DNA of 64,000 nt from an uncultured Candidatus Saccharibacteria bacterium (GCA_964562615.1 CAZLUD010000001.1:38937-102936), one strand, 5' to 3'. Numbered from the stretch's first letter, positions 4,188 to 63,961 are shown. The notes: generated by a model from the letters alone, not told the origin. Program-made: numbers and translations.

Positions 4188-6770
4188 CTACTTTAAATAT
4201 CTTGCCAGATATGCGCCGGTGTGGCTTCCTTTGGTCTTTGCCACTTCTTCTGGGGTTCCCTTGGCTACCACCTTACCACCTCGCACTCCACCCTCTGGGC
4301 CAATATCAATAAGGTAGTCTGCGTTTTTAATAAGATCAAGATTGTGTTCAATAATAACCACCGAGTGACCTCTTCGCACTAGCTCTTGAAGGATATCAAT
4401 GAGTCGCTGTACGTCTTCATAATGAAGTCCCACAGTAGGCTCATCAAGAAGGTATATTGTTTTTGTTACACTAGATCTATATAGCTCTGATGCAATTTTT
4501 AACCGCTGCGCCTCGCCACCTGAGAGAGTGGTCGCACTTTGTCCAAGCTGAAGATATGAAAGACCGGTTTCTTCAAGAATACGTAGACGATCATATATCT
4601 GAGGGATATCTTCAAAAAAGACAATCGCCTCTTCAATGGTCATTTGCAGTATTTCGTGAATACTCTTCTTTTTATACTTAACCTCAAGTGTCTCCTTCAT
4701 AAACCTCTTTCCGTCGCACACATCGCAGGTTACATATACCGTAGGAAGAAAATGCATTTCAACCGCAATTAGTCCATTGCCTTGGCATGTTTCGCATCGC
4801 CCACCTTTTACATTGAAAGAAAATCTACTTGGCTTCCATCCACGTGCTCGTGCTTCATTTGTCTCCGCAAATAGCTCACGTATAAAGGTAAATGCGCCCG
4901 TATACGTAGCTGGGTTTGATCGAGGGGTACGCCCAATTGGCGATTGGTCAATAAGTACCGTACGCCCCAAGTATTCTGTACCGGTAAGACTCGCTATGTT
5001 GTATAGCTTTGTGGTTCTGTGACTTTTTTCAAGTCTTGCAAGAAGATTTCTATGCAGAATTTCGTACATAAATGATGACTTACCAGACCCCGAGACACCA
5101 GTGATGCATACCAGCTTTCCAAGCGGAACATCAACATTCATATTTTGGATATTAAATATTGATCCGCCACGGATTTTAAGCGAGCCTTTGTCTGTATCTC
5201 TCCTACTCTCTGGCACCGGTATTTTTTTGTCTCCTCGAAGGTACGCCACCGTGCTTGAGCCACTCACATCCTTCTTTGCCTTTAACAAGGTATCAACATA
5301 GTCGGCTACCATCACCTCACCACCGTGCCGTCCTGCCTTTGGTCCGATATCAATAAGGTAATCAGCAGATAGTATGGTGTCTTCATCGTGCTCTACTACT
5401 ATAATGGTGTTACCTAAGTCTCTAAGGTCTAGCAAGGTTTTGATAAGTCTGTCGTTATCACGTTGATGGAGTCCAATGGTAGGTTCATCAAGTACATAGA
5501 GTGCCCCGACAAGTCCACTACCAAGCTGGCTCGCTAGGCGTATGCGCTGTGCTTCGCCACCTGAGAGGGTGTTTGCTTTTCTATCGAGGGTAAGATACTC
5601 GATACCAACATTGATCATAAATTGCAGGCGATTGCTTATCTCTTTGAGTATCACACCAGCAATTTCTTTCTCTTTCTTTGTAAGTGAAAGAGTAGCAATA
5701 AACTTCATTGCATCTTCTATTGAAAGATTTACAAATTCAACGATGTTTTTACCCTCTCCTTTTTTATCTCCGCCCACATATACATTGAGCGCTTCTTTTC
5801 TTAGGCGGGCGCCATGACAAACATCACACACTTCGCTATTAAATATCCCCGCCATGCCAAGCCCATTACAGTTAGGACACGCGCCATACGGTGAGTTAAA
5901 AGAAAATAGTCGTGGCTCCACCTCCGGAAAGGGCGTACCGTCGGTAGGGCAAATAAACTTAGATGAGAGCATTTGCTCTGTGCCATCTGGAAATATGAGT
6001 TTAATAAGTCCATCGCTTTCATGCAGCGCTTGTTCGATTGCTTCTCCTAATCGCTCGTCTGAGCCTTTTTTATCTTCGGTAAATTCAGTAACAAAAATAT
6101 CATCCACCACCACATCAATGTGGTGACGCTTGTTTCTATCGAGCTCTATTTTGTCACGAAGGGATTTTGTTTCGCTGTCTATCACTACCTGCTCATACCC
6201 TTTACCCAAAAGGTCATAAAGCATTTGATAGTACTCGCCCTTGCGCCCCACAACAAGCGGTGCAAGTATGCGAAGTTTTAAATCATTAACCGCGACGCCC
6301 ATTACCTTCTTACTAGTCTTCTTTAGGTCAATTGCTTTAACTGCGTGTATAGCGACTGCCTTCATTTCTTCAATGGACATCTTAGTGATGCGTGCATCAC
6401 CCTCCATACAATACGCCTTTCCGACACGCGCATATAAAATACGAAGATAGTCGTATATTTCAGTAATGGTAGCTACAGTAGAGCGTGGGTTATTGGAGCG
6501 AGACTTTTGATCTATTGATATCGCAGGCGAGAGCCCCGTTATTTCTTCAACATCAGGCTTTTGCATCTGATTAAGAAATTGACGTGCATAGGAAGATAGC
6601 GACTCAACATAGCGTCGTTGTCCTTCTGCAAAAATGGTATCAAATGCAAGTGATGATTTTCCTGAGCCAGACATGCCTGTTATGGCAATCATTTTATTCC
6701 TTGGCATTTCTACCGTGATGTTTTTGAGATTATGTGTTTTTGCTCCTTTTACTATTATTTTGTCGTCCAT
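4188..6770 (-). CDS. uvrA: Excinuclease ABC subunit A
   Basis: N-terminus MDDKIIVKGAKTHNLKNITVEMP. Two ABC ATPase cassettes (GMSGSGKSSLAF and GVSGSGKSSF) with a Zn-finger CxxC insertion. Confidence 0.9.
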   Translation of the reverse strand: MDDKIIVKGAKTHNLKNITVEMPRNKMIAITGMSGSGKSSLAFDTIFAEGQRRYVESLSSYARQFLNQMQKPDVEEITGLSPAISIDQKSRSNNPRSTVATITEIYDYLRILYARVGKAYCMEGDARITKMSIEEMKAVAIHAVKAIDLKKTSKKVMGVAVNDLKLRILAPLVVGRKGEYYQMLYDLLGKGYEQVVIDSETKSLRDKIELDRNKRHHIDVVVDDIFVTEFTEDKKGSDERLGEAIEQALHESDGLIKLIFPDGTEQMLSSKFICPTDGTPFPEVEPRLFSFNSPYGACPNCNGLGMAGIFNSEVCDVCHGARLRKEALNVYVGGDKKGEGKNIVEFVNLSIEDAMKFIATLSLTKKEKEIAGVILKEISNRLQFMINVGIEYLTLDRKANTLSGGEAQRIRLASQLGSGLVGALYVLDEPTIGLHQRDNDRLIKTLLDLRDLGNTIIVVEHDEDTILSADYLIDIGPKAGRHGGEVMVADYVDTLLKAKKDVSGSSTVAYLRGDKKIPVPESRRDTDKGSLKIRGGSIFNIQNMNVDVPLGKLVCITGVSGSGKSSFMYEILHRNLLARLEKSHRTTKLYNIASLTGTEYLGRTVLIDQSPIGRTPRSNPATYTGAFTFIRELFAETNEARARGWKPSRFSFNVKGGRCETCQGNGLIAVEMHFLPTVYVTCDVCDGKRFMKETLEVKYKKKSIHEILQMTIEEAIVFFEDIPQIYDRLRILEETGLSYLQLGQSATTLSGGEAQRLKIASELYRSSVTKTIYLLDEPTVGLHYEDVQRLIDILQELVRRGHSVVIIEHNLDLIKNADYLIDIGPEGGVRGGKVVAKGTPEEVAKTKGSHTGAYLARYLK

Positions 6771-6818
6771 ATCAATTGATTGCTCAAAAGAGCACGTTAC
6801 GCGTGGTTCGAGTATACA

Positions 6819-8888
6819 CTATTTTCGCTTCCATCTCTTGCGCGCCTTTTTTGCTCCATCGTCTCCCATAAGCTCTGCAATTTCGTCTCGCAGAATGGCG
6901 GCAGTCTCAAAGTCTAGTAATTTTACCGCTTCTTCCATTTGTGTGCGTTTTTCAGCAATGGTTGCCTCTGGGTTGTTGTCGTATAGCGCTCGGTCTATTT
7001 CAAGTAATGCGCCGACCGCCTTTTTGTGTTCGGTTCGAAGGTGTTCTGTGATGTCATTAATAGATTTCTTGATACTGGTTGGTGTAATATTATGAGCAAC
7101 ATTGTATGCGTGTTGCACTTCACGTCTGCGACGTGTCTCGTTAATCGCTTTACTCATTGAGTCAGTCACCTCGTCCGCATACAGTATCACCTTACCTTCG
7201 ACATTTCGTGCAGCTCTTCCCATGGTTTGCATCAGGGATGTTTCTGAGCGCAAAAAGCCTTCTTTGTCAGCATCAAGTATCCCCACCAACGTTACTTCTG
7301 GTAGATCAAGACCCTCACGCAACAAGTTTACTCCTACCAGCACATCAAATGTCCCTTTTCTAAACTCAGTGAGTGTGGTGATTCGGTCAATGGTTTTTAC
7401 ATCGCTATGCAGATACTCTGCCTTAATATCTTTTTCTTTGAGAAATTCAGCAAAGTCTTCTGCCATTTTCTTGGTAAGAGTAGTCACAAGCACTCGTCCT
7501 CCCTTTTTTACTGCCGTACTTGTCTCGTGTATAAAATCTTTTACTTGTCCGCCGTACTTGCCTTTAGCAAGAATCGGACGAACCTCGATTTCGGGATCAA
7601 GTAGTCCTGTTGGGCGCACTATCTGCTCTGCAATGCCACCCATTGGCGGCACTGAATGTTCCTTTTCATAAACACCAGGAGTTGCCGAGGTATAGATTGT
7701 TTGCCCCACTCGAGCCTCAAATTCAGTAAAGGTAAGTGGTCGATTATCTTTTGCGCTTGGTAATCTAAATCCATGGTCAACCAGTGTCTGCTTTCGCGAT
7801 TGGTCACCAGCAAACATGGCCCTGAGTTGTGGCACCGTCACATGAGACTCATCAATAATGGTAATAAAGTCAGGTGAGCCGTCTTTATGATGTGGAAAAT
7901 AATCAATGAGCGTATACGGTGGATCACCAGCGTTTCTTCCATCAAAATGTCGTGAGTAGTTTTCTACCCCATTGCAATATCCAACCTCTCGTATCAGAGC
8001 AAGGTCATAGTTCGTTCTACGTTTGAGACGCTCTGCTTCTAGAATTTTTCCTTCTTTCTCAAACACCTTTAATTGCGCCGCAAGCTCAGCCTTAATATCT
8101 TTTGCAGCGCGCTCACGTTCTTCTTCAGGAGTTACGTAGTGCTTTGCAGGGAAAATAAAAATACTATCTACCTCTTTTACGAGCGCTCGAGAGACAGGGT
8201 CAATGATTGATATTGATGATATACCTGAACCCATAAATGCTACTCGATAAATAATCTTTTCATTGATGGGCATTATTTCAAGCACATTTCCTCTCCCTCT
8301 AAACTCCCCCGGCGAGAGGTCTGCGTTAGTACGGGTAAAATAAATCGCCACAAGCTTTCTTACCATTTCAGCCCTCGTTATTGTCACCCCTTTTGCCAAT
8401 TTGACATTAACCTTTTCATACTCACTTGGGGAGCCAAGTCCGTAAATACATGATACTGATGCCACCACAATGACATCGGTTCGAGTGAGGAGTGCTTGAG
8501 TTGCCGAGTGACGCAAGCGATCAATCTCTTCGTTTACCATTGCCTCCTTTTCAATATAGGTATCAGACGTGGGCATGTACGCCTCTGGTTGATAGTAATC
8601 GTAGTACGAAACAAAGTAGTGCACTGCCGCATCAGGAAAGAACTCTTTATATTCTTGCGCGAGCTGTGCTGCAAGTGTCTTGTTATGAGCAATAACAAGC
8701 GCAGGCTTGTTTACCGTTGCAATTACATTAGCGGCAGTAAATGTCTTGCCTGAACCAGTTACACCAATAAGGGTCTGGTGTCGAAGACCCTTTTCGTATC
8801 CTGATAGCAATGTCGAAATAGCCTTGGGTTGATCACCTGAGGGCTTATACTTTGATACCAGGGTAAATGGGTTGCGTGACTTTGCCAT
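6819..8888 (-). CDS. uvrB: Excinuclease ABC subunit B
   Basis: LIGVTGSGKTFT Walker A, YDYYQPEAY motif and C-terminal UVR domain (ILRDEIAELM). Confidence 0.95.
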   Translation of the reverse strand: MAKSRNPFTLVSKYKPSGDQPKAISTLLSGYEKGLRHQTLIGVTGSGKTFTAANVIATVNKPALVIAHNKTLAAQLAQEYKEFFPDAAVHYFVSYYDYYQPEAYMPTSDTYIEKEAMVNEEIDRLRHSATQALLTRTDVIVVASVSCIYGLGSPSEYEKVNVKLAKGVTITRAEMVRKLVAIYFTRTNADLSPGEFRGRGNVLEIMPINEKIIYRVAFMGSGISSISIIDPVSRALVKEVDSIFIFPAKHYVTPEEERERAAKDIKAELAAQLKVFEKEGKILEAERLKRRTNYDLALIREVGYCNGVENYSRHFDGRNAGDPPYTLIDYFPHHKDGSPDFITIIDESHVTVPQLRAMFAGDQSRKQTLVDHGFRLPSAKDNRPLTFTEFEARVGQTIYTSATPGVYEKEHSVPPMGGIAEQIVRPTGLLDPEIEVRPILAKGKYGGQVKDFIHETSTAVKKGGRVLVTTLTKKMAEDFAEFLKEKDIKAEYLHSDVKTIDRITTLTEFRKGTFDVLVGVNLLREGLDLPEVTLVGILDADKEGFLRSETSLMQTMGRAARNVEGKVILYADEVTDSMSKAINETRRRREVQHAYNVAHNITPTSIKKSINDITEHLRTEHKKAVGALLEIDRALYDNNPEATIAEKRTQMEEAVKLLDFETAAILRDEIAELMGDDGAKKARKRWKRK

Positions 8889-8910
8889 AGACTAAGACTA
8901 CACGATTTTC

Positions 8911-10101
8911 TTAAACTGACGAATCTAATTTTTCACGTTCAAGGCGAAGTAGCCGTTCAAGAAAAAATACATTCGACATACTACAGAGCACTCCGCCGAG
9001 CATCTCACCACTGCGTAGTAGATGCGCCACGTATGCTTTTGTATACCCCTTCAACCGTTCGCACTCGCCCGTCTCATCAAGTGGGCTCTCATCGTGTTTG
9101 TAGCGCTCGTTACAAAGATTGATTTTTTCACCCTGCGCGTTGTATATCATACCTGTCCTACCAAGCCGAGTTGGCTGCACACAATCAAATAAATCAATGC
9201 CTTTTTCTATACCGCTTATAACATCCTCCGGTTCTCCAATACCAAGCAAATGACGTGGTTTATCCTCAGGCAATATATCGGTCACCCATCCCACGGCGGT
9301 GTCCAAGTCCTCTTTTACATATGAGCCGCCAATGCCATACCCATCAAAATCCATATCTGCAAAAAATCGAGCACTTTCTTTCCTTAAATCCTCAAATCTT
9401 CCACCCTGCACAATACCAAAGAGTGCCTGCCGCTCTCCCATGGTGGTGTTTTGTCTATGTGCACTAAGAGAGCGCTTTGCCCAGCGGTGCGTTCTCTCCA
9501 TTGCTTCTAATTGATACGCATGATCTGCCGTAGCGCTAGTACATTCATCAAAAGCAAAAATTATGTCCGCGCCAATGTTGTGCTGTATTTCGATAGAACG
9601 CTCAGGAGTAAAGCGATGAAGAGTACCATCGATGTGTGAGGTAAAGGTCACCCCTTCATCATCTATTACTGCAAGCTTTCCGTGTTCAGAGAGTATATCA
9701 GGATCAAAAAACACTGGTCTTCTTTCATGCGCCACGCTGTCTATATCTGCTTTTGCCACCTTGGTAAGGTTCTTTCCAAACGCAGCACCAAGTGAGAATA
9801 CTTGAAATCCTCCCGAGTCAGTTGAGACTGGTCCATCCCAGTTCATAAATGAGTGAATCCCTCCCAATTTTTTTATTATTTCGTCTCCTACGGTGAGGTA
9901 TAGATGGTACGTATTTGCGATAACCGCATCAACACCTAGCGCTTTCCAATCATGTGCACCAATACCCTTTAACGTTGCCTTTGTGGCAACAGGAAGCAGT
10001 GTTGGTGTCTCGATAATACCGTGGGGGGTTATAAGCCTCCCCCGTCGCGCTTTACTATTTGTTTTCTTTTTAAGAATTTCAAATGTTATTGGCTTTTTCA
10101 T
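8911..10101 (-). CDS. tgt: Queuine tRNA-ribosyltransferase
   Basis: ARRGRLITPHGIIETPTLLPVATKATLKG, YHLYL and a zinc-site C-terminal region. Start set at MKKPITFEIL rather than the upstream in-frame ATG of the ORF track. Confidence 0.85.
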   Translation of the reverse strand: MKKPITFEILKKKTNSKARRGRLITPHGIIETPTLLPVATKATLKGIGAHDWKALGVDAVIANTYHLYLTVGDEIIKKLGGIHSFMNWDGPVSTDSGGFQVFSLGAAFGKNLTKVAKADIDSVAHERRPVFFDPDILSEHGKLAVIDDEGVTFTSHIDGTLHRFTPERSIEIQHNIGADIIFAFDECTSATADHAYQLEAMERTHRWAKRSLSAHRQNTTMGERQALFGIVQGGRFEDLRKESARFFADMDFDGYGIGGSYVKEDLDTAVGWVTDILPEDKPRHLLGIGEPEDVISGIEKGIDLFDCVQPTRLGRTGMIYNAQGEKINLCNERYKHDESPLDETGECERLKGYTKAYVAHLLRSGEMLGGVLCSMSNVFFLERLLRLEREKLDSSV

Positions 10102-23634: not shown

Positions 23635-25692
23635 CTAATTAAATAAAGCCTTGAGTATTCTTCTTGTAGTGTTTGTAAGGCGTCGCGACTCATACGCTCT
23701 ACAGAGGGATAGTATTGCGCGTGCAGGGATAGGATACGGGTACGTAGTGTCAAGTAAATCTTTGACTGTAAGACCTTTTGCAGTTGCGAGTATAAGTTCT
23801 CGTACAAGCTCACCAGCATAGTCGCTGACAAGCGTACCACCGTAGATTTCTCCATTTTTACCAATATAAAGCGAAATGTATCCATGGGTAGCGTGTTCTA
23901 TTATAGACCTATCGTCATCACGTAATGAAAATACTTCTTTAGTATAAAATTGCTTTCGTTCTTTGAGTTGATTCTCTTGTAATCCAAATGTCGCGAGTGC
24001 TGGAGATGTATACATCACATTTGCAAATGTGTCAAGAGATACCTTCTTCCACAATGGTCGTGGTGCAAAGAACGTACGCAACACCACTGCCGCATGGAGC
24101 TCGGTAAGGTGGGTAAACTGTGCCCCACCCGCTGCATCGCCAACCACATACACATGCTTGTTTGACGTGCGCATAAACTCATCATGAGTAATCCTATTAC
24201 CCGAGTAAGTAATGCCTGCTTTCTCTAGCAACAAACCCTCAACAGACAGTTCTCTACCGATTGCAACCAATACCTTGTCCGCTTTAATGCGCGTCGTTGA
24301 CGAACCAGAAGTCACAAATACTTCATGAGGAGTAATTTCAGTGACCGTGCTGTCCATGTAAAAATCAATCCCCTCTTTGGTCATTGTCGTATACAGCACC
24401 TCTCCCGCCTCCCTTTCATACATAGGAAGAAGGCTTCCTGTATTATTGACTATTGTTACCTTACTCCCTAAGCGTGCAAATGCCTGACCGAGCTCAAGCC
24501 CAATAGGACCAGCTCCAATTACCACCAAATTGGTAGGAAGATCATCTAAGGCAAATACTTCAGTGTTATATAGCACATGCGGAAGTGTCGCACCCGAAAC
24601 AGAGAGTTTTCGTGGCGAGCTACCTGTAGCTATCACTATTTTTCTTCCAGAATATATTTTTCCTTCTACGGACACTGAGTGTGAACCAGCAAAACACGCC
24701 GATCCTATAACAACCTCATGCCCAAGTGATCTAAGATATTCTGCGCTTTCTTTTTCTCTAAAAACTTCTTGTGCTTGTGTAAGCAACTCGCGCACCTTTT
24801 TTAATGACACCACACCCTTTGTGGTAATACCAAACTCTGAGAGTCCGCGAGCGGCATGAACTTGATTTGCAATATGTAGTAGTCCTTTACTTGGCACGCA
24901 TCCACTATTGAGACAATCACCGCCGATATTACCTTCATCCTTCTCAATAATAAGAGTTTTGCACCCCACTCTTCGCAAAAATCCAGCAATGTTAAGACCA
25001 CCAGCACCAGCGCCAATGACTATGACATCAAAATCATATGATGACCTATCCAGTATTCGTGGCAACAACGACGAAACAATAAAAAGGAGCACAAACCATA
25101 GCGCGGCAATCACCACACCAAGCACGGTCGGCATGGCAATTACATTACCAAAATACACATACGCAAACGTACCAGGGATAATACCTACCACGGTACCAAT
25201 CACGTAATCTTTTGCGCGCACTTGTGTAAGTCCAAGGACAAAATTAAGCGCATTAAATGGAAACAGCGGTACAAGACGCAAAAATAGCATGGTAATAAGT
25301 CCGTGCTGTTCTAGCTTTTTGTCGTACTCATATATGGTACGTGCATAGGTGTGAAGTACGGCATCAACTGCCTCTTTTCCAAAAAAGCGGGACAGTATGA
25401 ACGCAAGAAACGCCCCGACACTTGCCCCAACCACAACAACTGCGGTACCCGTAAACGTACCAAACAATACCCCCGCAAGTATGGTAAAAGGTGTCCCCGG
25501 AAGAAATAGCACCGTAGCTAAAGCATACAGCGCAGCAAACAGTATCAATGATTGTGCGGTTGGTTGTGCTGAAAGAAAACTCCTTAGTGCGTCAGGAGAG
25601 AGCACATCAAACAACATATAGTGATGCGATAGATACCCAATCACCATCACTACTATAAGCAATGCTGCTATCTTTAATAATGAAGCGCTCAT
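23635..25692 (-). CDS. DedA/TVP38 membrane domain fused to an FAD-dependent pyridine nucleotide-disulfide oxidoreductase (lipoamide/mercuric-reductase-like)
   Basis: N-terminal ~200 aa polytopic DedA-like region. Then VIVIGAGAGG FAD-binding fold, redox-active GGDCLNSGCVPSK, a second Rossmann fold (VVIGAGPIGLE) and a dimerisation domain. Confidence 0.75.
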   Translation of the reverse strand: MSASLLKIAALLIVVMVIGYLSHHYMLFDVLSPDALRSFLSAQPTAQSLILFAALYALATVLFLPGTPFTILAGVLFGTFTGTAVVVVGASVGAFLAFILSRFFGKEAVDAVLHTYARTIYEYDKKLEQHGLITMLFLRLVPLFPFNALNFVLGLTQVRAKDYVIGTVVGIIPGTFAYVYFGNVIAMPTVLGVVIAALWFVLLFIVSSLLPRILDRSSYDFDVIVIGAGAGGLNIAGFLRRVGCKTLIIEKDEGNIGGDCLNSGCVPSKGLLHIANQVHAARGLSEFGITTKGVVSLKKVRELLTQAQEVFREKESAEYLRSLGHEVVIGSACFAGSHSVSVEGKIYSGRKIVIATGSSPRKLSVSGATLPHVLYNTEVFALDDLPTNLVVIGAGPIGLELGQAFARLGSKVTIVNNTGSLLPMYEREAGEVLYTTMTKEGIDFYMDSTVTEITPHEVFVTSGSSTTRIKADKVLVAIGRELSVEGLLLEKAGITYSGNRITHDEFMRTSNKHVYVVGDAAGGAQFTHLTELHAAVVLRTFFAPRPLWKKVSLDTFANVMYTSPALATFGLQENQLKERKQFYTKEVFSLRDDDRSIIEHATHGYISLYIGKNGEIYGGTLVSDYAGELVRELILATAKGLTVKDLLDTTYPYPIPARAILSLCRAYESRRLTNTTRRILKALFN

Positions 25693-46425: not shown

Positions 46426-46800
46426 TTACTTCTTTTCTACTTTCTTTGCTGTCTTTGTTGCTTTTGGTTTTGGGGCAAGTTCTTTCTCTATTTCTTTCCA
46501 ATGCTTCTTTAGTTCTGCGCCAAGTTTTTTTGCTTCTACCTCTCCTACTGATGCTGCCTTTTCGTACTTGGCAGTAACGGTATCTACCACCTTCATAAAC
46601 TTATCCTTGTCTACTTCTTTAAGTTTTTCTACCTGCTCAAGAACCTCACCCTTTGCCTTTAGCATCCAACCCTTTGCCTTCTTTCGGTTCTTTGCTGCTT
46701 CTTTAGTGCCATATAAAAAGTATGCGCTTGCAATTCCGGCGACGGCAGCTGCTGCTATCCCTAGCTTTACCCCAGCGCCCGATGCTTGTTTCTTAGCCAT
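46426..46800 (-). CDS. Lys-rich protein with an N-terminal transmembrane helix (124 aa)
   Basis: ORF track; low-complexity K/E/A-rich. Confidence 0.4.
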   Translation of the reverse strand: MAKKQASGAGVKLGIAAAAVAGIASAYFLYGTKEAAKNRKKAKGWMLKAKGEVLEQVEKLKEVDKDKFMKVVDTVTAKYEKAASVGEVEAKKLGAELKKHWKEIEKELAPKPKATKTAKKVEKK

Positions 46801-46824: not shown

Positions 46825-47148
46825 TTACGCTGATTCATCATCTTCTCGCTTTGTACGCTTTGCCCTCTTTGGCTTTGCGCCCGATCCAAATCGTTCTGCC
46901 TGATGAGCGACAAACGACATAATCGGCATTATTTTTGACTCACCTTCTTCTACCATCTTTTTCACGGTATCTACTCCGTCAGATACTGAACGCACTCCCT
47001 TTCTTACCGTATCTGTTATCTCTGCGATGGTACGTACTATTTTTAGTACATAATAAAGAACTACGATAACCATCACGGTTACAAGCACCACCGCAACGGA
47101 GGTGATATAGAAAAAAATATTCGTCTGAAGAATGAGCTCGCTTTCCAC
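46825..47148 (-). CDS. Small membrane protein (DUF948-like architecture)
   Basis: One N-terminal transmembrane helix plus a charged tail; ORF track. Confidence 0.35.
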   Translation of the reverse strand: MESELILQTNIFFYITSVAVVLVTVMVIVVLYYVLKIVRTIAEITDTVRKGVRSVSDGVDTVKKMVEEGESKIMPIMSFVAHQAERFGSGAKPKRAKRTKREDDESA

Positions 47149-48179: not shown

Positions 48180-48249
48180 ACCTGAAGCCTAGCAATTGAC
48201 TAATTACTGTCAAATGTGCAAAGTATTAGTAGCAACAACGGAGGTGCAA

Positions 48250-48549
48250 ATGAGTGACGGGAGATCGCAAGAAATATATATTGCCGGTGTTGGGTACTTA
48301 ACAATAACCAAGTCCCCGGAGGTGTTGGCAAAAATACCCGACTCAGAAGGAGCGTGGGTTGTTTGTAATCATGAGCATCTATTTGTCCCTTTCTATAGAG
48401 ATATGGCATCAATTATCAACCCAGAGATAGCTACTGCGAATAATCTTGCATTTGTTTGCTTGTCCAGAACAATTACTGAAGAAGAAATTTTGTTGTTGAA
48501 AAAAAGATTAAGTCAAAAGAAAGGTCAGAGAGTAGTAGCAAACAATTGA
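48250..48549 (+). CDS. Hypothetical protein (~100 aa)
   Basis: ORF track 48196..48549. Start moved to the ATG preceded by GGAGGTG. No family recognised. Confidence 0.35.
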   Translation: MSDGRSQEIYIAGVGYLTITKSPEVLAKIPDSEGAWVVCNHEHLFVPFYRDMASIINPEIATANNLAFVCLSRTITEEEILLLKKRLSQKKGQRVVANN

Positions 48550-48551
48550 TA

Positions 48552-48582
48552 GGGGGGCGTTCAACATATTTGAACGCCCCTC
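48552..48582. terminator. Bidirectional rho-independent terminator (13 bp stem, 5 nt loop, T-rich tail) between convergent genes
   Basis: aggggggcgttcaa-catat-ttgaacgcccct, followed by cccttattta. Confidence 0.6.
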
Positions 48583-48588
48583 CCTTAT

Positions 48589-51018
48589 TTATATAGTTAT
48601 CGTCTGTCCTCTTTTAACCTCTCCTGCTATTAGCTTGTCTGCCACCTTTTGTTCTATATGTTCTTGTATTGCCCTATTCATTGGGCGAGCACCAAATTGT
48701 GGGTCGTATCCCTCTTTTACTATCATCTCAAGCATTGCATCTGATACCTCAAGGTTTACCCCTTGCTCTCTTAGTCGCTTTTTTAACTTTAGGAGCATAA
48801 GACCGGCGATTTTTTTAATATGCTCAACAGAAAGTGGGTGAAAGACAATAACACCATCAAAGCGGTTAAGTAGCTCGGGTTTAAAAATCCCTCGCTTGAT
48901 GATTTCATTGGTAAGGTCATCAGCATGTAATGATGGGTCAATGTCACTTTTTGCGTACTCCCATATTTTATCGCTTGCCGCATTTGATGTTGCTATCACA
49001 ATAACGTTGCGTGCGTTTACCCGCTTGCCGTGAGCGTCAGAAAATTGCCCCTCATCAAGAATCTGAAGAAATAGATCATGAACGTCTGGATTTGTTTTTT
49101 CAAACTCATCCAAAAGCACAATGCCGTACTGCCCCTCTCTTAGTGCGCTTGATAGCGTTCCGGCTTTTCCAGATTGAAATGAGCCAATGAGTCTATCAAG
49201 GGCATCAGCACCTCGATACTCGCTCATGTCAAAGCGCATGATTTTTTCTTTGTTTCCAAAAAACACCTCAGCAAGCGCCTTTGTGGTTTCGGTCTTTCCT
49301 ACACCAGTAGGTCCTAAGAACAAAAACGATCCCATCGGTCGCTCCATAGTACGTACTCCCGCCCGAGACCTTCGCATGGCCTTTGCTATAGCGGTTACCG
49401 CTTCGTCTTGCCCAATGATTTTTTCATGTAGTCGCTTTTCCAAATCGATAAGCATTTTTTGTTCTTCTTTGGTTGGGGCGCTAAGGGGTATGCCTGTTTT
49501 TCCTTCTACAAGCGTGAGTACGTCTTTTTGTACAATATATCCCTGCTTGTGTGCTACTGCAGTAGTTACCAATTCTCGCATAAGGTCAAATCCCTTGTCT
49601 GGCATCACCCCATTTGCAAAGTATCTGTCTGCGCTTCGTATGACTTCCAATATTGCTTGGTAGGTAAAAAACACACCATGTCGCTCTTCAAGCATGAGCG
49701 ACTCACGCCCCAAGACACGCACCAACATGTACTCGTCTAAATCTTCAACAAATACTGTATCAAAATACTGCATGATGGTTCCGTGCTTTTCTAGCGTGTG
49801 GTGATACGCCTGTGGGTCATCGGTAAAGATGATTTGCAAATCTTTCGATGAAAAGTACGGCGTCATCAAATCAATCACATCTACTCCTATTGCCTTGGTC
49901 GCCTCTATAAATGAGGTGACATTTTGTACCACCAAAATAATATTGCCTGCATATGCAGACTGGTCGAGTATCTTTATAAATTCATGCTCAAATGCGCCAG
50001 ATGCCTTACCGGTCTCTACCATAGCGGTAGGGTTGAAAATAAACACCGTCTTATCCATAAGGGGAGGAAGTGCGCTCCCTTCTTTAATACGGCGAGCAAT
50101 GCGAGCAATGATTTCCATTTCTCCTATTCCAGGCTCTCCTACCAATAGCACATTGGATTGTCGGTTTCGCGACAAAATAGTTTCAAGTTTGTCTACCTCT
50201 TCACGTTCACGCCACGCAAATTGCGATGACTCGTACACTGCATCCGTTACAATGTCGTGACCGTACTTGTCCAAAAAGTATGTTTGTCCATAGCCAAGTG
50301 ATCTGCCTATTGCAGGGAATCTTCCCAAGTTATCTCTTCCCCACCAGCGTTGACGCAATCTACGTTCTCTGAAAATTTCTTCTACCCATAGCGAGGTACC
50401 GACAAAATCACTTTCTTGAACTTCTACAGAAAACAAAAATTCTTGCAGTGACGTATCCGCACGATAGATTGCAGATGCATACTTAGAGATGGTTACCGGA
50501 CCCTCTCCATAAAAGCTAACGGCACCACCACTTAGGTGTGCCCGCTGACTTTGCAAAAATTGCTCGCGTGCATCATCACTCACTCCTAATCGGGTAAGAA
50601 TAACGCCACCAAAGTATGAGGTAAGAAACCCCTCGGTAACATCATACGGATTGGTCGAGTACACAATAGAACTAACTTCAAAACTTACCGAAGTAGACCC
50701 GTGACTTTCTAGTTCTGCAAGGACAAAATCAAGTCCGCGATAGTAGTATGATCTTCTAAACCACTCAAGCAGGGCAAACGAAGTCCATAGTGAAAATAGT
50801 ATAAGCGAGCTTCCTGCCCAGAGAGTCTCGAAGCTGGTGATAAAGGGAGATGCTTGTGGCACAACAATAGCCGCTGCAAAAAGGATCACCATTGCAAAAA
50901 ATGCCGCTGCAATAACACGAGAAATTCTTCTGCGCACCGGCGTGTCGATAGTAGCCTCAAGAACAAAGATGGGTGCAAAGTGCTTATATACGTATTCTTG
51001 TAGGTCAGCAAAGCTCAT
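48589..51018 (-). CDS. Membrane-anchored Clp/Hsp100-type AAA+ ATPase with a degenerate D1 Walker A
   Basis: The C-terminal D2 is canonical (GPTGVGKTE, GARPMNRAIQ). D1 reads VGEPGIGEMEIIARIA instead of GEPGVGKTAIV. Two N-terminal transmembrane helices and no ClpB N-domain. Start set at MSFADLQEY. Confidence 0.7.
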   Translation of the reverse strand: MSFADLQEYVYKHFAPIFVLEATIDTPVRRRISRVIAAAFFAMVILFAAAIVVPQASPFITSFETLWAGSSLILFSLWTSFALLEWFRRSYYYRGLDFVLAELESHGSTSVSFEVSSIVYSTNPYDVTEGFLTSYFGGVILTRLGVSDDAREQFLQSQRAHLSGGAVSFYGEGPVTISKYASAIYRADTSLQEFLFSVEVQESDFVGTSLWVEEIFRERRLRQRWWGRDNLGRFPAIGRSLGYGQTYFLDKYGHDIVTDAVYESSQFAWREREEVDKLETILSRNRQSNVLLVGEPGIGEMEIIARIARRIKEGSALPPLMDKTVFIFNPTAMVETGKASGAFEHEFIKILDQSAYAGNIILVVQNVTSFIEATKAIGVDVIDLMTPYFSSKDLQIIFTDDPQAYHHTLEKHGTIMQYFDTVFVEDLDEYMLVRVLGRESLMLEERHGVFFTYQAILEVIRSADRYFANGVMPDKGFDLMRELVTTAVAHKQGYIVQKDVLTLVEGKTGIPLSAPTKEEQKMLIDLEKRLHEKIIGQDEAVTAIAKAMRRSRAGVRTMERPMGSFLFLGPTGVGKTETTKALAEVFFGNKEKIMRFDMSEYRGADALDRLIGSFQSGKAGTLSSALREGQYGIVLLDEFEKTNPDVHDLFLQILDEGQFSDAHGKRVNARNVIVIATSNAASDKIWEYAKSDIDPSLHADDLTNEIIKRGIFKPELLNRFDGVIVFHPLSVEHIKKIAGLMLLKLKKRLREQGVNLEVSDAMLEMIVKEGYDPQFGARPMNRAIQEHIEQKVADKLIAGEVKRGQTITI

Positions 51019-51019
51019 A

Positions 51020-51397
51020 TTACATAACACTTATAGCCACCCCAAGCGCGACAAGTCCAGGAATAATAATTGGTATAAAAAACCACACGACAAATAATAG
51101 TAGCCCGAGACTAAAGGTAAGGATAAGAAAAACAAGTCCAATTATTATTAGGATACTGCGTATGCAAAATCCAACGATACGCATAATAAGACTGACGATA
51201 ATCACCTCTGCTAGTTTGTCGAGGTGCAAGCCGCCACTGTACCGCTCGCTTAATCGTTGAAAGGGGTCAAATAATGTACGTAGCAAGATAGGTATCGAAA
51301 ACACATGGAGTACAAACCACATAAAGTTTACCCACACACCAAGATATTCTTTTGGTGCGCGCGTATAATGCCAAAGCGTGTAGTAATACAACAGCAT
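51020..51397 (-). CDS. Hypothetical polytopic membrane protein (125 aa)
   Basis: ORF track; about four transmembrane helices. Confidence 0.4.
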   Translation of the reverse strand: MLLYYYTLWHYTRAPKEYLGVWVNFMWFVLHVFSIPILLRTLFDPFQRLSERYSGGLHLDKLAEVIIVSLIMRIVGFCIRSILIIIGLVFLILTFSLGLLLFVVWFFIPIIIPGLVALGVAISVM

Positions 51398-51417: not shown

Positions 51418-52272
51418 TTACCCGTCTATGGGGAGAGTTGCTGTTCCCTGCGGGGTATCCTCACCAACAAATCGATAATACAGTTTCTTTCCAAATCGCA
51501 TATCAATGTAGTCAATACTTGAAATAGCAATATCACGCAGTGGCTCCTCATTAAAGATGGTAATAATCATATCTGCCCGTGCAGAAAGTTCATCCTCAAT
51601 ATTAATACGAATTTCAGGACCGTTTTTGATAGTCAAAAATGCTTCTTGCTCATCTTCACTAATAGCAACCTGCGTAATTGGATACTCATGCGCTGTCAAA
51701 AACGACACCAGCTCGCTTAGGTGGGTATAGTGCGCTGGAGCTATCAATGTCTTTCCAAGTGGCGCTTCTGTACTACCCTCTTTTGAGTATTTTACATACA
51801 CCGAGTCCGAAAAGATGGGGGCAAGAGCGTATCCAATAGCAGTCTCATCTATGTAGTAACACGATGCATCTGCCATGCACCATAGCGCGTGCGGCTCTCG
51901 CTCAACCACTGCTATCTCAAGTGCGGTTAGTCCCGCTCGTGTTACAGCGACCTCTTTCATTCTTGGGAGAGAATTCAAAATTTGTGCCGCAATCACATCA
52001 AGAGGAACAAGGAGTATGTTATTTTGCGGAAAAATAAAAAAAGATTTTTTGTTGAGTACCTCATTTGCTTGCGCTTGTATGGTTGCCACTTCCTCTACGG
52101 CATTACCATGCACAACAATGGTAGAAATTCGCCAAAATGCCATATGGAGGGAATACACCATGGCTACCACCGCAACAATTACACACAAAGAAATCACTCC
52201 TGTTCGTATGAGTAGCTTTTTTCTGTATCTCGCTTTACGTTCTAGTGAGGAAAATGTATGCGGCCTCGGCAT
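51418..52272 (-). CDS. FtsQ/DivIB-like cell-division protein (transmembrane anchor plus POTRA-like domain)
   Basis: N-terminal transmembrane helix, then ISTIVVHGNAVEEV…ILLVPLDVIAAQILNSLPRMKEVAVTRAGLTALEIAVVEREPHALW, resembling the FtsQ POTRA/beta domain. Confidence 0.5.
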   Translation of the reverse strand: MPRPHTFSSLERKARYRKKLLIRTGVISLCVIVAVVAMVYSLHMAFWRISTIVVHGNAVEEVATIQAQANEVLNKKSFFIFPQNNILLVPLDVIAAQILNSLPRMKEVAVTRAGLTALEIAVVEREPHALWCMADASCYYIDETAIGYALAPIFSDSVYVKYSKEGSTEAPLGKTLIAPAHYTHLSELVSFLTAHEYPITQVAISEDEQEAFLTIKNGPEIRINIEDELSARADMIITIFNEEPLRDIAISSIDYIDMRFGKKLYYRFVGEDTPQGTATLPIDG

Positions 52273-62482: not shown

Positions 62483-63961
62483 CTACAGAGAGCATGAGGC
62501 AGTTCTCGCCTGATTGCAGTAGATTGAAAAGTGTGATTTTCCTGAACCAAGAGTAGGTACAACTCTAACATTATCATCTGGAATAGGTGTGCCAGCTAAC
62601 CTTGAAGCTGCTAGTAGATCGTCCTTTTCTTTTTGATTGTTAACCTCCCATTCTGCCTTCATTCCAGTACTATTTGCCGCATTTACTACCTTGTTAATGT
62701 TTTGAAGCTCAGATTGAGTGTAGTACGCATCATTATATGATGGATTTGTAAAATCAAAATCAGCGCAGGTACCATTACTATGACAGGCGTTAACATGATT
62801 TACCGTGTCGTAGGCAGATGTCATTACAATCGCTTCAGATCCTGAGCTATCCAAGTTACTTTTAAATGTAGACAGCTTGGAATTATATGCGGGATCTACA
62901 TAACACACACCACCTGTATACGAGCAACCACTATTTGGATACGCAGTAGATTGTTCCAACCCACTTGGTGGTGTCGTTGGAGTTGTAGGAGTGGTTGGGG
63001 TTGTAGGGGTTGTAGGTTGACTGCTTTCAAGCGCAGCTATTTCACCATCCAGCGCTGCTCGTCTTATTGCAATATTAACGCAGACTTCTCTAGATGAATT
63101 TGCTGCAATATCACACTGATTTCTAATTCCTTCTGAAATTAAGGATCTCCTTTCTGCGCGTAATCTCTCTAAATTTTCTCTATCATTTATAGTTGCAATA
63201 TTCTCCAAGATTTGTAATCTTTCTGCACGATACGCATCAAGTTTTGCCTGCGATTCTCTTATACAAGCCACTCTATCAGATTCATATGCAAAGTTTTCGC
63301 ACAATTCAATTTCTCTTTCTAATCTTTGAATTTCAGTTTCTGCATTGGTGAGCGCCTCTCTAGCTTTGGTTATTTCAGTTGCTACAGTAACTACTTGCCC
63401 TGCGTTAGGATTTGGTAACAAACCTGCATTTCTTCCATCGTTCTGACAAGCAATCTGACTAACATCGGCAAGCGATCTTCCTGCAAGGGTATTTAGTACA
63501 GTATTTACCACAACCCACGCACCAAGCACTGCAACAAATCCAAAGAGTACATTCCAAAATATACCCTTTGCCTTAGAAATATTTCCTGGATTAGTGCTGG
63601 AGGTAAGGTACAAAAATCCAGCATAGGTGAACATGATACTCGCAAGAAGTGCAGACGCGAGTATTATGAATCTAATTATTCTTTGGATAGTAGCAAGAAA
63701 TTCGCACGGCCCACAACTGCTTGTATCTCCCACGTGATAACCTCTATTACATGTTACTAATCCCGATGCGTTTTCATTTGCTCCAAACTGTGTATTGGTG
63801 ATATCAACCACCTGCGCACTCTGTGACGAATCAATATATGGCGAATCAGCTACCCCACGTACCGCTACTATCGATGAAGAAAGATCAAAAGCAGGTAACA
63901 CGCCACCATGTTCGCCTTTTTCAACAACCATCCCAGCTCCTATAAGCAAGAAGAATTGCAT
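62483..63961 (-). CDS. Large membrane/secreted protein with a TrbC/VirB2-like double transmembrane hairpin, coiled coil, (TPT)n linker and a Cys-containing C-terminal domain
   Basis: Signal-like N-terminus, then two adjacent transmembrane helices (RIIRFIILASALLASIMFTYAGFLYL…IFWNVLFGFVAVLGAWVVVNTVL). Coiled coil, TTPTTPTTPTTPTTPP linker and a C-terminal domain with seven Cys. Confidence 0.45.
   Translation of the reverse strand: MQFFLLIGAGMVVEKGEHGGVLPAFDLSSSIVAVRGVADSPYIDSSQSAQVVDITNTQFGANENASGLVTCNRGYHVGDTSSCGPCEFLATIQRIIRFIILASALLASIMFTYAGFLYLTSSTNPGNISKAKGIFWNVLFGFVAVLGAWVVVNTVLNTLAGRSLADVSQIACQNDGRNAGLLPNPNAGQVVTVATEITKAREALTNAETEIQRLEREIELCENFAYESDRVACIRESQAKLDAYRAERLQILENIATINDRENLERLRAERRSLISEGIRNQCDIAANSSREVCVNIAIRRAALDGEIAALESSQPTTPTTPTTPTTPTTPPSGLEQSTAYPNSGCSYTGGVCYVDPAYNSKLSTFKSNLDSSGSEAIVMTSAYDTVNHVNACHSNGTCADFDFTNPSYNDAYYTQSELQNINKVVNAANSTGMKAEWEVNNQKEKDDLLAASRLAGTPIPDDNVRVVPTLGSGKSHFSIYCNQARTASCSL

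Follow-up and report, generated by a model that had tools for sequence, protein, structure and literature searches.

In Hsp100 hexamers the N-domains sit atop the first AAA+ ring (D1), and the substrate enters at D1 and leaves at the second ring (D2). Of the two rings, D2 does most of the motor work in ClpA and ClpB. Skd3 (human CLPB) is an active disaggregase with a single ClpB-D2-type ring, no middle domain (M-domain) and no ClpP partner; it has an N-terminal hydrophobic/membrane-associated segment, its ankyrin repeats stand where the D1 ring would be, and its GYVG pore loop is canonical. Absence of the M-domain means absence of MecA/DnaK-type regulation. FtsH, Msp1/ATAD1 and Bcs1 have an N-terminal transmembrane (TM) anchor, a pore entrance held against the membrane and membrane-protein clients. 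Torsins are ClpB-D2-like AAA+ proteins at the membrane whose non-canonical loops lack pore aromatics and which need a small membrane-protein cofactor (LAP1/LULL1); they reside in the endoplasmic reticulum lumen and have no Arg finger, which the cofactor supplies. In NSF (its D2) and Pex1/Pex6 (their D1), one stacked ring works without hydrolysis in a structural or assembly role, NSF-D2 still binding ATP. Here we describe a Clp/Hsp100-like ATPase gene, clp, and its small membrane partner, sTM, in a 64,000-nucleotide stretch of DNA from an uncultured Candidatus Saccharibacteria bacterium (GCA_964562615.1 CAZLUD010000001.1:38937-102936), referred to below as the window.

The two genes belong to a module of a membrane-anchored Clp protein and a small partner, which was set apart in this analysis and is found in the ultra-small Patescibacteria (Candidate Phyla Radiation, CPR). 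The family is an altered Clp/Hsp100 ATPase with an uncharacterised obligate partner, not previously described in the searchable literature. The window has the features of the module: N-terminal hydrophobic helices, an upstream sTM, a degenerate D1, a complete D2 and a pore-loop core of 7-9 amino acids (aa). Positions are given as 1 to 64,000 of the window, and both clp and its partner are on the minus strand. Relatives were sought in one genome per GTDB species (at least 587 matches), and the locus analysis covered the best 80. Family statistics were taken from a MAFFT alignment of 79 members together with ClpB, ClpA and ClpC-like references.

A degenerate D1 and an intact D2

The clp gene (48589..51018) starts with ATG and encodes 809 aa plus a stop. 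An in-frame GTG at 51030 is an alternative start that adds four residues, but it is less likely to be used because the homologues begin at the ATG. The 809-aa product is also called by public gene callers, and an identical protein is present in three independent assemblies. Pfam recognised AAA_2 (PF07724) in D2 (aa 560-721, 138.9 bits against a cut-off of 27, E 2e-40) and ClpB_D2-small (PF10431) at the C-terminus (aa 729-809, 97.9 bits against 21.9, E 3e-28). The first half of the protein gave a weak AAA_lid_9 match only; the Pfam scan found no AAA match over D1, no Clp_N and no Peptidase_M41 domain, the C-terminus being ClpB_D2-small. In a phmmer search of the PDB the best match was ClpC (3j3t, E 2e-103), and the alignment to ClpC covered both D1 (aa 244-483, 82 bits) and D2 (aa 495-808, 270 bits). 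ClpA gave one contiguous alignment (aa 270-808 to ClpA 191-732), and CLPB entries matched the D2 region at E 1e-34 to 1e-31. The AlphaFold2 (AF2) model had a predicted local distance difference test score (pLDDT) of 83.6 with a well folded D1, and its top Foldseek matches were ClpC/ClpB (570-780 columns, E 1e-43 to 1e-42). On these sequence matches and this model, the protein is a member of the class-I Clp/Hsp100 superfamily with two tandem AAA+ modules in a two-tier fold. No curated NCBIfam equivalog captures the family: the scores were far below the cut-offs for ClpB (TIGR03346, 416.6 bits against 1232.1), ClpA (TIGR02639, 360.1 against 993.15) and the NF008118 model (357 against 1417).

The linker between D1 and D2, counted from the PDKxxDL motif to the start of D2, is 40 aa in the window protein and 40-42 aa in all family members, compared to 44 in ClpA, 97 in a ClpC-like protein and 171 in a CPR ClpB. 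An earlier reading of this DNA, made from the sequence alone (the sequence-only reading), had proposed that there is no middle domain, and the short linker bears this out. Without an M-domain, DnaK coupling of the ClpB kind is therefore not expected.

D1 (aa 270-490, 49549..50211) is a pseudo-ATPase module, as judged from motif alignment, family statistics and the AF2 model. The ClpC Walker A motif GEPGVGKTA is replaced by GEPGIGEME (aa 294-302, 50113-50139), where Glu300 stands for the Lys and Met301 for the Thr. Walker B FIDE has become VVQN (within ILVVQNV, 49918-49938), the pore loop KYRGEFE has become KASGAFE and lost its Tyr (49987-50013), and the Arg finger ERRF has become MQYF (within TIMQYF, 49762-49779). 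The sequence-only reading had called the D1 P-loop dead, a conclusion that holds; the substitutions it named (Lys to Met and Thr to Glu) were one register off, and alignment to ClpC gives K300E and T301M. D1 was also checked for an intact Walker A at another position, and no GK[ST] was found, the alignment to ClpC, ClpA and ClpB being unambiguous. Across the 79 members the Walker A Lys column holds Lys in 35, Arg in 27 and another residue in 17. The Walker A Thr/Ser is kept in 11, the Walker B catalytic Glu in 10, the Arg finger in 11 and the pore aromatic in none. The closest relative that has the Walker A Lys (P0002, 63% identity) reads GEAGIGKLE, indicating that the Lys to Glu change is recent and took place inside a D1 already dead for hydrolysis. 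With Glu in place of this Lys, the window D1 is unlikely to bind nucleotide.

A relative with 92% identity shows the same pattern of D1 and D2 motifs. Between this relative and the window protein, the ratio of non-synonymous to synonymous substitution rates (dN/dS) was 0.023 in D1, 0.026 in D2 and 0.039 overall; dS is high and the ratios are approximate. Judged by these ratios, D1 is under strong purifying selection on a par with D2 and is not decaying.

D2 (aa 520-727, 48838..49461) was delimited by Pfam AAA_2, the motif table and the family statistics, and all of its catalytic motifs are present, as the sequence-only reading had claimed in calling it canonical. They are Walker A GPTGVGKTE (aa 569-577, 49288-49314), Walker B LLDEFEK (49096-49119), sensor-1 ATSN (48979-48993) and the Arg finger NRFD (48856-48879), followed by sensor-2 GARP (48673-48696) in the D2-small (lid) domain (aa 728-809, 48592..48837; Pfam ClpB_D2-small). 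The Walker A Lys and Thr, the Walker B Asp and Glu, the sensor-1 Asn and the Arg finger are present in 79/79 members, and the sensor-2 Arg in 78/79. The intact, trans-acting Arg finger implies assembly into a ring. Set beside D1 motifs that are degenerate and variable, these counts agree with the earlier description of a single-engine ATPase. The accompanying premise, that ClpA, ClpB and ClpC strictly need both nucleotide-binding domains, was too strong, given that D2 is the main motor and given the example of Skd3/CLPB. D2 is also named as the main motor in the title of PDB entry 6qs4.

The pore loop of D2 is shortened. In the window protein it reads LIGSFQSGKAGTLS (49150-49191) and is four residues shorter than in canonical proteins, in which the core has 13 aa compared to 7-9 in the family. 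The column of the GYVG Tyr is deleted in 75/79 members, including the window protein. A Phe ('GSF') occurs in the shortened loop in 17 of the 26 members of the window's clade, and an aromatic residue in 14 of the 53 members elsewhere. As canonical aromatic pore loops are gone from both rings, processive threading is not to be assumed, and the unfoldase role proposed in the sequence-only reading is putative.

The D2 region that corresponds to the ClpP loop (48916-48975) reads SDKIWEYAKSDIDPSLHADD. It was inspected for an IGF/IGL docking loop, a check proposed in the sequence-only reading, and there was none, so ClpP docking of the ClpA/C/X kind is not expected. The tripeptide [ILVM]G[FLM] is sporadic in this region (4/79 members), while the ClpA, ClpC-like and CPR ClpB-type references all have IGF.

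Membrane anchor, N-domain and small partner

The N-terminus consists of a cytoplasmic amphipathic helix (aa 3-23, 50950..51012; a helix in the AF2 model) and two predicted TM helices (TM1, aa 26-52, 50863..50943; TM2, aa 64-92, 50743..50829), placed by hydropathy, AF2, conservation and charge bias. Kyte-Doolittle 19-mer maxima lie at aa 35-53 (3.0) and aa 66-84 (1.6), and the TM helices are kept in nearly all relatives. Lys plus Arg averages 4.8 ahead of TM1, 0.12 in the loop and 2.35 past TM2, a positive-inside bias that fits a hairpin with both ends in the cytoplasm (N-in/C-in). The sequence-only reading had proposed two N-terminal TM helices and a membrane-tethered protein; hydropathy, the AF2 helices and conservation support the former, and hydropathy, the AF2 helices and the charge bias support the latter.

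In nine relatives, of Magasanikii/Uhr/Wirth type (L058, L060-L063 and L072-L075; also P0029), two CxxCxGxG motifs, the four-Cys signature of DnaJ-type zinc fingers, precede the TM hairpin within the first ~60 aa. The window protein has its amphipathic helix at this place. A cytoplasmic, zinc-finger-like motif ahead of TM1 agrees with the N-in topology.

Between the hairpin and D1 lies a domain (aa 113-231, 50326..50682) that is all-helical in the AF2 model and appears to be a reduced, divergent derivative of Clp_N. The relationship emerged transitively with hhalign. Residues ~122-228 matched the N-domain of longer, P0028-type relatives (probability 96.9%, E 1.3e-10), and that N-domain matched the double repeat of canonical Clp_N (98.6%, E 7e-16); the direct comparison of the window N-domain with Clp_N reached one repeat only (24.8%). 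The earlier statement that a ClpB N-domain is missing is not confirmed, the transitive matches pointing to a reduced Clp_N derivative. A family-specific Trp/Arg-rich linker motif, RWWGRDNLGRFPAIG...YGQTYFLDKYG (aa 224-253, 50260..50349), was defined by alignment of homologues and leads into D1; its columns R224, W226, L231, G238, Y243 and G244 are invariant or near-invariant. Family members are most like the window protein in D2 (51% identity) and the lid (42%), and less so in D1 (28%), the N-domain (21%) and the TM region (18%).

The partner gene (51020..51397) encodes 125 aa and adjoins clp, its stop lying 1 nt ahead of the Clp ATG; it was characterised from the junction sequence, an alignment and AF2. 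WHY occurs near the N-terminus of the protein; its other features are FSIPILLRTLFDPFQR, a basic amphipathic helix and, at the C-terminal end, a pair of hydrophobic helices with an invariant Pro. Its relatives have in common W[HWQ]Y, FFS..LLRTLF.PW+R, the basic amphipathic helix and the C-terminal hydrophobic helices with the invariant Pro. Pfam and NCBIfam gave no family for sTM. The AF2 model has a pLDDT of 91.4, and its fold matches were generic.

A profile search gave 1218 matches, all short and without Pfam domains; the few source names were 'hypothetical protein' and one fatty-acid desaturase, and the named organisms were all patescibacteria. Among 1.84 billion cluster representatives, HMMER found 1,746 sTM clusters (50% identity) at E<=1e-3, almost all of 105-160 aa. 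Two matches were set aside: Phage_holin_4_2 (20.6 bits against a cut-off of 28.8, in 1/35 partners), taken as hydrophobic noise, and a 414-aa 'fusion' (P0261) that looks like a miscalled read-through.

A hidden Markov model of the partner was run against every open reading frame (ORF) of the best 80 loci, two of which are cut by contig ends, leaving 78 assessable loci. sTM ends just upstream of clp in 65 of them and, after revision of start sites, is adjacent in three more (68 in total). In the other ten (L030, L031, L042, L051, L052, L055, L057, L069, L077 and L078) it makes up the N-terminal ~130-160 aa of the Clp ORF through an in-frame fusion and is followed by one extra TM helix. The lineages with fused forms include Portnoy-, Moranii-, Berkel- and Levybacteria. 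sTM is thus adjacent or fused in 78/78 loci, which substantiates the unusual partner suspected in the sequence-only reading. The single extra TM helix of the fused forms implies that the sTM C-terminus is outside the cell, and their layout implies either a gain of the N-terminal helix and TM1 by the split-form Clp or a loss of both from the fused form. Strict adjacency, translational coupling and repeated fusion indicate that sTM and Clp act together, very probably as one membrane complex.

Distribution and genomic setting

A protein search returned about 25 full-length homologues (32-92% identity), and almost all of the best 80 loci carry a Patescibacteria/CPR label. The family is Patescibacteria-wide, with at least 587 relatives in the GTDB species genomes. 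Carriers among the Parcubacteria/Paceibacteria include Taylor-, Kaiser-, Vogel-, Giovannoni-, Yanofsky- and Nealsonbacteria; further carriers are Magasanikii-, Uhr-, Andersen-, Berkel-, Wirth- and Levybacteria. Seven loci (L036, L052, L055, L058, L067, L069 and L080) come from metagenome-assembled genomes (MAGs) labelled as Pacearchaeota archaeon, Gammaproteobacteria or Bdellovibrionales, yet their contigs are CPR-like and carry the module; one of these records is a 915-kb 'chromosome'. These labels are probably wrong.

Source annotations of members are generic (ClpA, ClpC or 'Clp protease ATP-binding subunit'). Full-text literature searches found no description of a membrane-anchored, D1-degenerate CPR Clp or of its small partner; their coverage was incomplete and an earlier description is possible. 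What they did yield on Clp proteins of CPR were counts of the ClpP, ClpX and ClpC families. The family is not described in a transposon sequencing paper on Saccharibacteria. In supplementary file 4 of PMC6744442, with its columns as we interpret them, the ClpC/ClpB family comprises 3294 proteins with a mean of 821 aa and is listed as cytoplasmic with no TM helices; the membrane-anchored paralogue may be lumped with canonical Clp ATPases in that table. In the Levybacteria MAG locus L078, a canonical soluble ClpC/B-type gene with an intact D1 and a GYVGY pore loop (4414-7122) is the immediate upstream neighbour of the fused sTM-Clp gene (7143-9791), so both paralogues coexist.

The surroundings are ordinary CPR housekeeping DNA, the window encoding UvrA, UvrB, phosphoenolpyruvate synthase/pyruvate phosphate dikinase, BipA, RelA/SpoT, TopA, DprA, SerRS, DnaX and Dus. 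Upstream of sTM is a gene for an FtsQ-type POTRA protein (51418..52272, minus strand; Pfam POTRA_1 at 25.7 bits, cut-off 23; weak NCBIfam FtsQ match), and the genes of the string serS-ftsQ-sTM-clp are separated by 4, 20 and 1 nt. A GC-rich hairpin of 13 bp (48552..48582), past the Clp stop and before the convergent ORF begins, is likely to be a bidirectional terminator that ends the operon. PADLOC matched only the generic ATPase region of D2 (aa 517-687/786) to Dodola DolB/PDC-M37B; there is no DolA next door, the neighbours have no PADLOC match, and this assignment was rejected.

The serS-ftsQ-sTM-clp order is typical of the window's lineage (13 loci, all with the FtsQ-type gene at position -2 relative to clp) and is often followed by a penicillin-binding protein (PBP)/L,D-transpeptidase gene, which lies downstream of the module in eight loci. 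A second arrangement, in another lineage, is sTM-clp-mraZ-rsmH-ftsL-like-PBP, and a third, in yet another, is mraZ-rsmH-ftsL-like-sTM-clp-GT4(MraY/WecA-type)-DUF192. A gene of the dcw (division and cell wall) cluster or for peptidoglycan lies within four genes in 36/80 loci, by our rough estimate far above the few percent expected by chance, for loci that are not phylogenetically independent. This recurrent placement beside or inside dcw clusters suggests clients in the divisome or in envelope synthesis.

Other genes of the window were recorded in passing. The ORF convergent with clp (48196-48549, plus strand) encodes 117 aa without a Pfam, NCBIfam or PADLOC match; at the equivalent place in the close relatives L081 and L084, genes of 111 and 97 aa are called on the strand opposite clp. 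Two small lysine-rich proteins of 124 and 107 aa (46426-46800 and 46825-47148, minus strand) match no family and have a single hydrophobic helix at the N-terminus; they are encoded between dnaX and dus, with counterparts of similar size and position in L081 and L084. A 685-aa protein (23635-25692, minus strand) joins an N-terminal VTT/DedA-type membrane domain to a complete Pyr_redox_2/dimerisation oxidoreductase, apparently an unusual fusion. A 492-aa protein (62483-63961, minus strand) with T4SS_pilin (PF18895) near its N-terminus may be a CPR-typical surface-appendage protein.

Possible function and comparison with known systems

The reading that we favour, at a probability of about 0.5, is a D2-powered membrane complex, independent of ClpP and DnaK, that would remodel or extract clients associated with the membrane, perhaps of the divisome or envelope. 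The TM hairpin and a short flexible linker would hold the reduced Clp_N domain, the dead D1 and the competent D2 at the cytoplasmic face of the membrane. Clp would form the usual hexameric double ring, with the N-domain and D1 facing the bilayer, as expected from an N-terminal anchor, and with D2 hanging into the cytoplasm in an FtsH/Msp1-like geometry. D1 would serve as a structural assembly or spacer ring, comparable to NSF-D2 and Pex1/6-D1. D2 would be the sole motor, using ATP hydrolysis to exert force on clients embedded in or associated with the membrane, which it would pull out or whose complexes it would dismantle. The conserved, cytoplasmic ~80-aa part of sTM might act at the D1 entrance as a receptor, regulator or plug that presents or regulates clients. 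The CxxCxGxG motifs of relatives and the Clp_N remnant suggest that clients are handled on the cytoplasmic side. More tentatively, and clearly below even odds, the sTM and D1-dead Clp pair could be a CPR-universal, Hsp100-derived dislocase/remodeller of the division and envelope apparatus, a new class that needs neither ClpP nor DnaK nor canonical pore loops and extracts or recycles divisome membrane proteins such as FtsL, FtsQ or PBPs.

Several points weigh against membrane extraction at the divisome. Canonical Ar-Phi-Gly pore loops are absent from the sequences of both rings, and processive threading or extraction may not occur. The TM topology of Clp is a prediction from hydropathy and AF2, and the topology of the last sTM helix is ambiguous, the fused forms implying an external C-terminus. 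Adjacency to dcw genes is seen in less than half of the loci, and compact genomes juxtapose many unrelated genes.

A non-threading switch of the Torsin type is the strongest competitor. The D2 ring would cycle in order to gate, assemble or disassemble either sTM, as a channel- or holin-like oligomer, or the TM bundle. Both rings lack pore-loop aromatics, the D2 loop being short and variable across the family, and the membrane cofactor is obligate (78/78). Both proteins are almost wholly cytoplasmic or membrane-embedded, with tiny external loops, and Torsins provide the parallel of a ClpB-D2-like protein with membrane cofactors and no aromatic pore loops. However, the D2 Arg finger and motor motifs are kept in every member, unlike in Torsins, and a Phe persists in the shortened loop across most of the window's clade. 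The zinc-finger-like N-termini and Clp_N-derived domain of relatives suggest client handling, and the weak holin match, below the Pfam cut-off, is limited to a single partner. We consider the switch possible but doubtful, about half as probable as the reading that we favour. Another alternative is an export or translocation motor resembling PTEX-HSP101, in which the ATPase would unfold proteins of the cytoplasm and drive them through a pore of TM hairpins and sTM. An Hsp100-type ring permanently joined to at least 18 TM helices per hexamer would suit such a device, and CPR episymbionts might deliver proteins to their hosts. With the D1 face tethered to the membrane and threading known to run from D1 to D2, transport would nevertheless be expected to run from the membrane to the cytoplasm. 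The pore loops are degenerate, the AF2 models of Clp and sTM have no extracellular domains, and no secretion-system genes were linked in the loci examined, all of which makes export improbable.

A membrane-tethered, ClpP-dependent protease, filling in an FtsH-like role the gap left by a near-absent ClpX, is about equally improbable, with only a slight advantage over export. Columns of the above supplementary file, as interpreted here, count 1327 CPR genomes with the ClpP family and only 33 with the ClpX family (PMC6744442), and on those figures ClpP needs another ATPase. Canonical soluble ClpC/ClpB-type proteins with IGF are nonetheless available in CPR (P0039; the upstream gene in L078) and can serve ClpP. 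The window D2 has no IGF, IGL or VGF, such tripeptides being rare in the family and constant in the references, and no protease gene was a conserved neighbour in the loci examined. Least probable by far, and to all intents refuted, is a decaying paralogue, a pseudogene, an assembly artefact or a mobile, DolB-like defence component. Every D1 catalytic motif is lost and the PADLOC matches to DolB and PDC-M37B are at the level of D2, but the frame is intact in identical proteins from three independent assemblies, dN/dS is low (0.039 overall, 0.023 in D1) and the family is conserved CPR-wide in a housekeeping setting.

The module matters in several respects. Patescibacteria account for much of the diversity of bacteria, and the majority of the membrane proteins conserved among them are without an assigned function. 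Here an orphan family (1,746 or more clusters at 50% identity, with no Pfam model) is tied to a recognisable motor, and each becomes a way into the other. The module also serves the AAA+ field as a natural experiment: in it, an Hsp100 with a dead D1 kept under strong selection has lost both canonical pore loops and the ClpP and DnaK couplings within an integral membrane complex, which probes the actual need for a first ring and for pore loops. The repeated embedding in dcw clusters is a testable lead to CPR division and envelope upkeep.

Among known systems, ClpC, ClpB and Hsp104 give the best sequence and fold matches and share AAA_2 and ClpB_D2-small in D2 and apparently a Clp_N-derived N-domain, whereas the window protein has no coiled-coil M-domain, an inactive D1, a membrane anchor and a dedicated membrane partner. 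ClpA shares the plan of N-domain, D1 and D2 without a middle domain (linker of 44 aa compared to 40), but it is soluble, both of its ATPase sites are active, its pore loops carry Tyr and an IGL/IGF loop docks ClpP, where the window protein has a TM hairpin, a dead D1, a shortened D2 pore loop and no ClpP loop. Compared to Skd3/CLPB, a pseudo-D1 ring is retained here and the GYVG is deleted. Unlike Torsins, the family has its own D2 Arg finger (79/79) and sensor-2 Arg (78/79), and its location must be cytoplasmic. NSF D2 and Pex1/Pex6 D1 resemble the Clp D1, which is kept under purifying selection without catalytic residues, in that one of two stacked rings has lost hydrolysis. NSF-D2 differs in binding ATP, which is unlikely for the window D1 with Glu in place of the Walker A Lys; about three quarters of relatives have Lys or Arg there. 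FtsH, Msp1/ATAD1 and Bcs1 belong to a different AAA+ clade, with a single ring and canonical aromatic pore loops (and, in FtsH, an M41 domain that is missing here), but their geometry, with an N-terminal anchor and the pore entrance against the membrane, is the same as that predicted for the window protein.

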